Source of the DNA: a virus
Taxonomy: Duplodnaviria > Caudoviricetes
Reading direction: 5' to 3' (one strand)
Virus record (IMG/VR): IMGVR_UViG_3300020331_000002
Length of the DNA stretch: 64,000 nt
Below the pieces are notes generated by a model. It saw only the letters and a program-made list of their open reading frames with translations. It was not told where the DNA came from and did no database searches. Within the stretch, counting starts at the first letter, position 1; each line of letters begins with the position of its first letter. Both the position numbers and the translations under genes were made by a program. Shown here piece after piece: positions 18,788 to 39,011 of the stretch.

Positions 18788-18908
18788 TGGTAGGGAGTGC
18801 AGGACTCGAACCTGCGACCCACGGCTTACAAGGCAATAAGGATATGCTGTTAGAATACTAAAACAGTATTCATGTTTACGTTGCTCTACCCAACTGAGCT
18901 AACTCCCT
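18788..18908 (-). ncRNA. tRNA (UGU anticodon, Lys-like body) interrupted by 44-nt insert carrying the UAACAGCA module
   Basis: Perfect acceptor, D and T arms and CCA; removing 18835-18878 restores ACGGC-CUUGUAA-GCCGU. Confidence 0.85.
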
Positions 18909-19765: not shown

Positions 19766-19781
19766 AGTAACCTCGAGTTAA

Positions 19782-19888
19782 GGTTGCCGGGCCAAGGAAT
19801 CGAACCTCGTTCGGGTGCATACTTGCGAAGTTTGCTGCGACAAATCTAAACAGACTTAATGGAGTCCCTCAGAATCATTCACCCGGCA
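19782..19888 (-). ncRNA. tRNA-like RNA (acceptor + T arm) with CGCAGCAA module and no anticodon arm
   Basis: UGCCGGG/CCCGGCA stem, CGAGG-UUCGAUU-CCUUG T arm, hairpin-GUCGCAGCAA-hairpin core. Confidence 0.65.
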
Positions 19889-29728: not shown

Positions 29729-29880
29729 TGGGCGAGCCGCCGGGATTCGAACCCGGGAATACAGAATACTTCCGCTATTTGCATTTCACTTGGCATTGTC
29801 CGTACCTTTAAACCCCTCATACCAATACTTGGCTTAAAGAACCGATGCACCGATTCTTAAAGTTGCAAGGAGTCAGCCCG
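29729..29880 (-). ncRNA. tmRNA-like/tRNA-like RNA, 152 nt, G3-U70 pair
   Basis: CGGGCUG/CGGCUCG-C-CCA acceptor, CCGGG-UUCGAAU-CCCGG T arm, no D or anticodon arm. Confidence 0.7.
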
Positions 29881-29890
29881 ATTGTTAAAA

Positions 29891-29970
29891 TGGCGCAGGT
29901 GTAGGGAGTCGAACCCTCAAGTCTCTCGACACGGTTTTGGAGACCGCTTTGCTCGCCAATGCGCACCTAC
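29891..29970 (-). tRNA. tRNA-Trp(CCA) with extended variable arm
   Basis: GCGGU-CUCCAAA-ACCGU; variable hairpin GUC-GAGA-GAC; G73, CCA. Confidence 0.85.
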
Positions 29971-33808: not shown

Positions 33809-33905
33809 TAGTACCAGGTACGGGATTCGAACCCGCAGGGTCATTATTGCAGACCGCGACAAGCACTTCCGTGATGCCGCGCCTTCCCATTCGGCGCAAC
33901 CTAGT
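33809..33905 (-). ncRNA. atypical tRNA-like gene (CGG loop, A33, long variable arm, ACUA end)
   Basis: Paired acceptor, D and T arms; loop CACGGAA; about 25-nt variable region. Confidence 0.65.
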
Positions 33906-34002: not shown

Positions 34003-34205
34003 ATAAACCTTTACAAGCTGTTTATATCAGCTATAGCTTCTTTGAGAGATTCACGCGCACGTTTTTCGCGCTCGAGTTCTTCAACTCTTTTTTCTAGCTT
34101 TTTTACAAGCTTAACAAGATCACCGTGTGTCATTGTCATTGTGAACCTCTATTTAATATGGCGCCGGCCCTGCGATACAACAGGGGATCACCCGGCATTG
34201 TAAAC

Positions 34206-34703: not shown

Positions 34704-34776
34704 TGGTTGCGGGTGCAGGTAACGATCCTGCCGGTCCTGGGTTATGAGCCCTGGTTGAACACCATGTTCACCCGCG
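34704..34776 (-). tRNA. initiator tRNA-fMet(CAU) #1
   Basis: C1:A72 mismatch, GGG/CCC in AC stem, unusual AUCGUUA T loop. Confidence 0.85.
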
Positions 34777-34783
34777 ATAGATT

Positions 34784-34862
34784 TGGTTGCAAGGGCGGGA
34801 TTTGAACCCGCGTCCGCTAGGGTTATGAGCCCTGCCATCTGCCAGACTGATTGTACCTTGCT
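34784..34862 (-). tRNA. initiator tRNA-fMet(CAU) #2
   Basis: A1:A72 mismatch, CAGGG/CCCUA AC stem, CCA. Confidence 0.85.
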
Positions 34863-34868
34863 ATTGTT

Positions 34869-34948
34869 TGGCGCGGCAGGTAGGAGTCGAACCCACATGT
34901 TTCCAATTACTCTTTCGACTGGTTCGTAGCCAGAGGAGATACAACCGC
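34869..34948 (-). ncRNA. rearranged tRNA-Arg(ACG)-like RNA lacking a 5' D arm
   Basis: Acceptor GCGGUUG/CUGCCGC-G-CCA, CUGG-CUACGAA-CCAG, D-loop-like UAAUUGG located 3' of anticodon arm. Confidence 0.7.
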
Positions 34949-37389: not shown

Positions 37390-37489
37390 TGGTGGACCCC
37401 CGCGGACTTGCACCACACGCCTCAATACTACCCCCACTTTATTTCTTTTAAGACACCGGATTTACAGTCCGGGGTGGGGAAAGGGATCC
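37390..37489 (-). ncRNA. rearranged tRNA-Tyr(GUA)-like RNA lacking a 5' D arm
   Basis: GGAUCCC/GGGGUCC-A-CCA; CCCCAC/GUGGGG helix enclosing CCGGA-CUGUAAA-UCCGG; degenerate T loop UGCAAGU. Confidence 0.7.
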
Positions 37490-38300: not shown

Positions 38301-39011
38301 CTATGCGCGTCTGCGAACAGCTATTCCTAGTACCGCTAAAAGCGCAAGCGCTAATGATCCCGGTTCCGGAACCGCTGTTACGCCATCTAACTGCAAATCA
38401 TATGAACGCTGCATTAGCCCAGTATCAGGCGATGCAATATTACCGCGCACTTGGATGGCTCCTATATTTGTGAAGTCAGTATTACTAAATTCACTCGAAA
38501 GGAAAAACGCATCACGTCCTGGACGATCAACGCCCGGTATCGGTAACTCAACAGTTTCGGCGGTTCCGTTAGGACCTGACCAAAACGTTACGTCAAACCA
38601 AGCATCCAAATCTGATTCAATCATAGTTGTAATGAATTTTATCGGGCCGCCGATAGCAGTTAAGTCAAGTCCGCCTAAGCCGAAAGGATTAATTGCATTT
38701 GATCCGTCAACGCCGTCCCATTGAATGGTAAACATTGATTCATTACCTGCGCCTGAACTAAAGAAAAAGTTATCAGCCGCTACGTTTACAGAAGCGCCTT
38801 GGTTGTACACGTCAACAACGCTTGTTATTTCTAAATCTCGTTCTCCACCGATCATAGAACCCAATACCGAGCTAAACAAAGTTTCGCCTTGCATCACTGC
38901 TAATGGTCCTTGATCATCAGAGAAGTCGTCGATTGTTATCATACCTGCGTTGGCCGAGGTAGTTATACCCAGGGCCAATACAGCGCCTAACAATAGAGAT
39001 TTTATTTTCAT
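38301..39011 (-). CDS. PEP-CTERM sorting-domain protein
   Basis: Signal peptide (ANA/G), C-terminal VPEPGSLALALLAVLGIAVRRRA. Confidence 0.92.
   Translation of the reverse strand: MKIKSLLLGAVLALGITTSANAGMITIDDFSDDQGPLAVMQGETLFSSVLGSMIGGERDLEITSVVDVYNQGASVNVAADNFFFSSGAGNESMFTIQWDGVDGSNAINPFGLGGLDLTAIGGPIKFITTMIESDLDAWFDVTFWSGPNGTAETVELPIPGVDRPGRDAFFLSSEFSNTDFTNIGAIQVRGNIASPDTGLMQRSYDLQLDGVTAVPEPGSLALALLAVLGIAVRRRA

Follow-up and report, generated by a model that had tools for sequence, protein, structure and literature searches.

To our knowledge, the cloverleaf is regarded as universal for transfer RNAs (tRNAs) of the bacterial type, with departures that are mainly mitochondrial. Permuted tRNA genes, such as those of Cyanidioschyzon and Thermofilum, mature into normal cloverleaves, and neither transfer-messenger RNA (tmRNA) nor YrlA is known to have a decoding anticodon arm. 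Here we describe an RNA gene at positions 34869-34948, on the minus strand, of a 64,000-nucleotide (nt) stretch of Caudoviricetes DNA (the window; IMG/VR record IMGVR_UViG_3300020331_000002). Judging from comparative sequence analysis, we put the probability that this phage gene yields a functional tRNA-Arg(ACG) whose core is rewired at roughly 0.7. The rewired RNA is a real feature and a new variant of tRNA architecture. Like the D-armless mitochondrial tRNA-Ser(GCU/UCU) (PMC7609411, PMC4394434), it lacks a D hairpin ahead of the anticodon arm; like the allo-tRNAs and the 8/4 or 9/3 tRNAs of Mukai et al. (PMC5389517), it is non-standard, of metagenome or phage derivation, and poorly handled by standard finders.

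Relative to the cloverleaf, segments 10-21 and 22-45 appear to have been exchanged. The order along the chain would be the acceptor strand, U8-A9, positions 22-45 (the D-stem 3' strand and the anticodon arm), positions 10-21 (the D-stem 5' strand and the D loop), position 48 and the T arm (Table 1). The initial annotation had described a CUC/GAG helix around CUGG-CUACGAA-CCAG and no D arm 5' of the anticodon arm, and the sequence reads as it claimed. No hairpin occupies the 8 nt that separate the anticodon arm from the acceptor 5' strand; the last two of these, CU, lie between the CUC strand and that arm. The D-loop-like UAAUUGGA comes after the enclosing helix of three base pairs (bp), with AAACAU between UAAUUGG and the T arm, and the acceptor stem GCGGUUG/CUGCCGC forms six of its seven pairs plus one U-U.

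Neither ARAGORN nor Rfam made a tRNA call at the locus. Beyond a weak T-arm overlap with tmRNA below the gathering score, Rfam returned no match there to tmRNA, YrlA or viral tRNA-like structures (TLS). The D-motif and T-arm pattern by itself occurs 0.17 times per shuffled window; at that rate, and because the layout recurs with covariation in 103 aligned sequences, the locus is not a chance match.

These 103 distinct sequences, which form our alignment, were collected with a descriptor that left the enclosing helix unconstrained. Across them, the 19 pairs show 97.3% pairing and 707 double changes. For the 3-bp enclosing helix by itself the figures are 94.1% and 110 double changes; none of 500 shuffles reaches this pairing, which falls to 16-43% when the helix is slid as a control. 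The helix also holds the top mutual-information pair overall, and RNAalifold, run unaided, gave the identical structure. In an independent set with G15-C48, all three of its pairs are Watson-Crick in 56 of 57 sequences. A mutual-information scan, made without the acceptor and T 3' strands, picked up the anticodon stem, the enclosing helix and a 35-20 link but no extra pairs or pseudoknot. The secondary structure of this family, whose members carry Arg or Ile-type anticodons, is nested and without a pseudoknot, and the 7/5 acceptor-T branch is kept throughout. Covariation shows the D stem to be rebuilt as a helix around the anticodon arm.

If the displaced segment corresponds to positions 13-19, the third of its bases is expected to form the Levitt pair 15-48 with the nucleotide just 5' of the T stem. 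We framed this as a prediction and scanned all four base combinations. The rewired matches had A-U in at least 95 cases and G-C in at least 112, against 8 with A-C and 2 with G-U. The equivalents of U8-A14, G18-U55 and G19-C56 are conserved in the family, partly through the design of the search; 15-48 covaries. A homolog alignment had been proposed as a check in the initial annotation, and it bears the fold out, with covariation in both the enclosing helix and 15-48.

The second test concerned the base following GG in the displaced loop, which in a true D loop should behave as position 20. Member anticodons are of Arg or Ile type only (UCU 37, ACG 15, CCU 4 and UCG 4 in the 103 sequences, besides UAU, GAU and CAU), and these seven different anticodons sit in perfect 7-nt loops with U33 and a purine at 37. 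The base after GG is A in 60/60 Arg members and U in 41/42 Ile members, a tie that holds inside each of three linker subtypes. Later sets gave A in 7/7 Arg and U in 58/58 Ile members, bringing the pooled counts to 67/67 for Arg and 99/100 for Ile/CAU members. All Ile members have A as discriminator; Arg members have G, A or U, apart from two with C in a later set. In bacteria, Arg identity is given by A20, C35, U/G36 and A/G/U73, and U20 and A73 are among the Ile identity elements (Giege and Eriani, PMC9976931, Table 1). By sequence, 34869-34948 carries the full bacterial Arg set, A20 being assigned via the displaced D loop. Two tests, the 15-48 covariation and the match of base 20 to the anticodon, say that the displaced segment is a real D loop.

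These results bear on whether the gene could be a functionless tRNA gene, decayed or scrambled, or a by-product of homing-endonuclease insertion. Several members do adjoin HNH genes, and folding of the single sequence does not favour the rewired fold. This degree of pairing and of double change across 103 sequences, together with tertiary covariation and anticodon-tied identity elements, makes such an origin very improbable, and the covariation already largely refutes it. Nor is the frequency of endonuclease genes among adjacent open reading frames (ORFs) above that of canonical tRNAs (~8/61 by rewired genes vs ~12-16/100 by canonical ones). We therefore rejected a homing-endonuclease enrichment beside rewired genes: there is no clear excess per adjacent ORF, though HNH genes flank several of the swap sites described below.

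The same covariation speaks to a further possibility, that the transcript is a precursor cut and re-ligated into an ordinary cloverleaf, as happens in red algae and archaea with permuted tRNA genes. RNA ligase genes do occur near some members (Zooman, A3Wally). Simple permutation is inapplicable, however, as the acceptor and T arm stand in normal order; three cuts and three joins would be required. The dedicated linker and the covarying 15-48 pair suit folding of the RNA as written, and no splice motif was seen in the alignment. We find such processing scarcely credible.

Rewired genes take the place of canonical ones, as a role in decoding would predict. Among loci with at least five canonical tRNAs, which are partial and related and were pooled, the same-anticodon comparison gave 7 cases with both forms, 45 with the rewired form only, 58 with the canonical form only and 94 with neither. 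Co-occurrence of the two forms is thus below expectation (odds ratio 0.25, p ~0.001). The Streptomyces phages Yaboi and Persimmon exchange rewired and canonical genes in four Arg slots, with the anticodon kept. In Yaboi the rewired genes are Arg(UCU), after Gly(GCC), and Arg(CCU), before Ile(GAU), where Persimmon has canonical ones; in Persimmon they are Arg(UCG), after Lys(UUU), and Arg(ACG), after Thr(GGU), both beside HNH genes, where Yaboi has canonical ones. Acceptor stems are near-identical in 2/4 of these slots.

A fold of the same kind, charged with arginine, might instead have a role outside normal decoding. It could serve as a decoy or mimic, occupying ArgRS/IleRS, anticodon nucleases or other tRNA-sensing defence proteins, or it could donate its amino acid elsewhere. 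The confinement of the family to two amino acids, its almost exclusively viral distribution and the retention of both forms by some phages would fit such a role, and a decoy would likewise retain synthetase determinants. Perfect loops with U33 and purine 37, seven anticodons and one-for-one replacement with the same anticodon are, on the other hand, what decoding predicts, and a decoy has no need to follow four Arg anticodons slot by slot. We consider a non-decoding role unlikely.

Several observations weigh against a functional tRNA-Arg with a rewired core. When 34869-34948 is folded alone, the structure with the enclosing helix lies 1.1 kcal/mol above the minimum free energy, with a helix probability of ~5% and a z-score of 0.24; single-sequence folding does not favour the rewired fold, so the case is a comparative one built on relatives. 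These members are kin, and the tree of such short RNAs is weak (11 vs 12 changes, 3 supported pairs), so that independent changes or switches cannot be counted. Both forms for one anticodon are present in 7/52 cases, including Zooman and A3Wally. Finally, CCA is encoded in only 40/103 members, and the remainder need CCA addition by the host.

For a functional tRNA-Arg, the D loop in the junction 5' of the T arm would retain the elbow contacts, 15-48 being shown by covariation and 8-14, 18-55 and 19-56 suggested by invariance. The backbone links 9-10, 21-22 and 45-46 would be replaced by 9-22, 44-linker-10 and ~21-48, and the D stem and anticodon stem would form one arm closed by the 44-to-10 linker. 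In the core of tRNA-Phe the relinked positions lie in neighbouring stacked layers, for which reason the L shape should survive relinking. Host RNase P would process the RNA, and host ArgRS would be expected to charge it through A20, C35, G36 and G73. The CUACGAA loop equals that of E. coli tRNA-Arg2, and editing of A34 to inosine would allow reading of CGU, CGC and CGA. As to why the rewired form is kept, we would guess that it escapes nucleases directed at tRNAs, or homing endonucleases for which the canonical gene is the target.

The initial annotation had proposed that an alternative tRNA fold, its D-loop motif placed 3' of the anticodon arm, is recurrent; this proposal is now strongly supported by the Arg/Ile family. 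We identified ~170 distinct phage relatives with the same layout, in Felix O1-, phi92- and crAss-like phages and Streptomyces BE phages. The BLAST matches lay in Microbacterium, Streptomyces, Rhodococcus, Mesorhizobium, crAss-like and T5-like phages and carried no annotation or a wrong label; one of them led on to ~250 records from enterobacterial phages, FO1a (Felix O1), phi92, PBECO4, Sugarland and Mydo among them. A pattern specifying only the D-loop motif directly 5' of the T arm gave 122 matches in viral contigs, at least 95 of them with the whole rewired layout upstream; an earlier, degenerate pattern had yielded mostly chance matches in viral contigs, with two real members at one locus. 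Later scans added 65 rewired sequences, and genome contigs a further 8. These 8, mostly beside tRNA genes, were the only matches in 185,579 species genomes, all of them on contigs of metagenome-assembled genomes, and the gene at 34869-34948 had no match in E. coli genomes. The rewired Arg/Ile family is essentially viral.

Members are 78-82 nt long, often with a 4-bp anticodon stem; 76/103 have a canonical tRNA gene less than 500 nt away, and only 2/103 overlap any ARAGORN call. It had been suspected that similar genes might already be known from phages. They are indeed present in sequenced phages, but there they are unannotated, entered as tRNA-OTHER or mis-called. The rewired Arg(UCU) of Yaboi, for instance, is labelled Val(aac) and a member in Trina tRNA-OTHER (mis-annotation loci L018:16687-16765, L020:4001-4079 and L021); in A3Wally, annotated tRNA names disagree with the anticodons. 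Model R1 (Table 1) found no member in T5, whose tRNA-Arg and stable RNAs I, III, IV, 1, 2, 2H and 3 were rejected as members for their different fold. In a further set (L279-L394), many rewired Ile members have the anticodon UAU, which is rare in bacteria, and often C38 or U38 in the loop. Separately, L035, L044, L055 and ~15 further viral loci carry tRNA-Ile(UAU) genes whose D arm is normal and whose long variable region likewise ends in UAAUUGG...AU 5' of the T stem. These genes are possibly intermediate between canonical and rewired forms.

Table 1. Positions of the probable rewired tRNA-Arg gene, its parts and other RNA genes discussed in the text.
Feature	Coordinates	Strand	Remarks
Rewired tRNA-Arg(ACG) gene, 80 nt including encoded CCA (probable)	34869..34948	-	Scores 85.9 bits against family model R1, whose source alignment contains this gene; canonical tRNAs reach at most 34 bits
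Acceptor stem 5' strand, positions 1-7	34942..34948	-	All 7 pairs covary across the family
UAU: U8, A9 and position-22 equivalent	34939..34941	-	U8/A9 invariant, partly through descriptor construction
CUC: D-stem 23-25 equivalent, now 5' of anticodon arm	34936..34938	-	Covaries with 34910-34912
Anticodon arm CUGG-CUACGAA-CCAG, 4-bp stem and 7-nt loop	34919..34933	-	ACG at 34925-34927; identical loop in 15/15 ACG members
Linker UCGAAA, anticodon stem to displaced D strand	34913..34918	-	YNGAAA subtype
GAG: D-stem 10-12 equivalent, now 3' of anticodon arm	34910..34912	-	Covariation, RNAalifold
Displaced D loop U13 A14 A15 U16 U17 G18 G19 A20	34902..34909	-	A20 = 34902
Linker to T stem, ending A-U48	34897..34901	-	U48 = 34897; covaries with A15
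Canonical T arm GUGGG-UUCGACU-CCUAC, 5 bp and 7-nt loop	34880..34896	-	
Acceptor 3' strand, discriminator G73, encoded CCA	34869..34879	-	G73 = 34872
Two CAU-anticodon tRNA genes	34704..34862	-	Directly downstream of 34869-34948, short spacers
Tyr(GUA) RNA without D arm, different pseudoknotted design	37390..37489	-	Three Pseudomonas-phage homologs
Tyr(GUA) homolog loci	L150:582-670; L277; L278		

The gene lies in a cluster of minus-strand tRNA genes, at least 23 in number, that spans 17.5-40.3 kilobases of the window, itself a portion of a large virus. The virus appears to be a bacteriophage, to judge by encoded CCA ends and initiator-like tRNAs. The window proteins had almost no family matches and tblastn was uninformative; a promoter scan gave nothing above chance. 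The rewired gene is the only ACG tRNA with an intact loop found in the window, and a canonical Arg(UCU) adjoins it; CGU, CGC and CGA make up 347 of the 514 Arg codons (68%) in 34 window ORFs. The two CAU tRNA genes downstream are probably co-transcribed with it, given their arrangement. The one at 34704-34777(-), which comes after the second CAU tRNA and was missed by both finders, is initiator-like, with a C1-A72 mismatch, three G-C pairs in the anticodon stem and an atypical T loop, AUCGUUA.

Other unusual RNAs lie in the window. The initial annotation had counted the Tyr RNA as a second example of the Arg architecture. Model R1 misses it, however, it lacks the UAA..GG..AU signature, and its homologs are pseudoknotted: in three Pseudomonas podophages, a covarying 6-bp helix around the anticodon arm is crossed by a covarying 4-bp variable-arm stem. 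The Tyr design is therefore separate and the argument from two examples fails, leaving recurrence to rest on the Arg/Ile family. A loose Tyr pattern search gave only noise. At 18788-18907(-) lies a gene resembling tRNA-Thr(UGU), with CCA and with D and T arms that are normal, which neither ARAGORN nor Rfam called; the 5' strand of its anticodon stem is interrupted by an insert of ~44 nt that contains an 8-bp hairpin. A minihelix-like hairpin of ~38 nt ending in G-CCA, with a stable fold (z -2.0), stands directly after tRNA-Val at 34159-34196(-), and a tRNA-shaped RNA at 33811-33905(-), called Pro(CGG) by ARAGORN, is without U33 and CCA and has a long extra arm. Uncalled tRNA-like genes at 29891-29970(-), ~29731-29850(-) and ~19780-19885(-) comprise a Trp(CCA) with a short D arm and an extra arm, and two longer RNAs that end in a T arm and an acceptor-like strand. 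Finally, the ORF at 38301-39011(-), inside the cluster, encodes a C-terminal PEP-CTERM motif, a possible hint of a Gram-negative host.

We think it fairly probable that the family constitutes a widespread class of natural bacterial-type tRNAs with a non-cloverleaf L shape, charged by host ArgRS/IleRS and decoding on the ribosome; rewiring may evade enzymes that attack cloverleaf tRNAs or the genes for them. If true, this would show that the tRNA core tolerates other strand orders. Phage tRNA inventories would be missing Arg and Ile genes, which touches arguments on why phages carry tRNAs, and the rewired form would offer a new scaffold for tRNA engineering. As the family occurs in cultured E. 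coli, Salmonella and Streptomyces phages, including the laboratory phages Felix O1-like FO1a and phi92, these proposals are directly testable.

No description of the rewired family was found in the full-text literature searched, mostly outside subscription journals; term searches found neither the rewired layout in PMC5389517 nor anything like it in the 2020 review of non-canonical tRNAs (PMC7609411). Permuted tRNA genes, tmRNA, YrlA and viral TLS resemble the rewired RNA in obtaining a tRNA shape or elbow from a different linear order. We rejected 34869-34948 as a permuted gene (3' half first, splice-motif ends) from the normal order of its acceptor and T arm. The allo-tRNAs of Mukai et al. 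alter the acceptor/T partition and remain cloverleaves, whereas the rewired RNA keeps 7/5 and alters the strand order of the core; with 7/5 throughout, assignment to the allo-tRNAs (8/4, 9/3) was rejected. Mitochondrial D-armless tRNAs have lost their D elements, whereas the rewired RNA keeps the D stem, G18G19, position 20 and 15-48 elsewhere in a bacterial-type chain; assignment to the mitochondrial type was rejected because it still has an equivalent of the D stem and a D-loop motif, both with covariation.

The remaining comparison is with canonical bacterial and phage tRNA-Arg (ICG and UCU isoacceptors; RF00005), for which we used the Yaboi ACG gene at the matching slot (L018:25804-25878). 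Of the RF00005 features, 34869-34948 has the acceptor, discriminator and CCA, a 5-bp T stem with a UUCRANY loop, and an anticodon loop with U33 and purine 37. It has no D hairpin and so is no member of RF00005, yet most likely works like tRNA-Arg. Instead it has what marks the rewired family, a helix enclosing the anticodon arm followed by UA(A/G)NNGG...A(U/C) 5' of the T stem. With canonical tRNA-Arg it shares the 7/5 branch, the T loop, U8, G18G19, A20, C35, G36, purine 73, the 7-nt anticodon loop and its position in a tRNA array; unlike canonical tRNA-Arg, it is rewired without a D hairpin, the strands of its D stem flanking the anticodon arm and its D loop following that arm.
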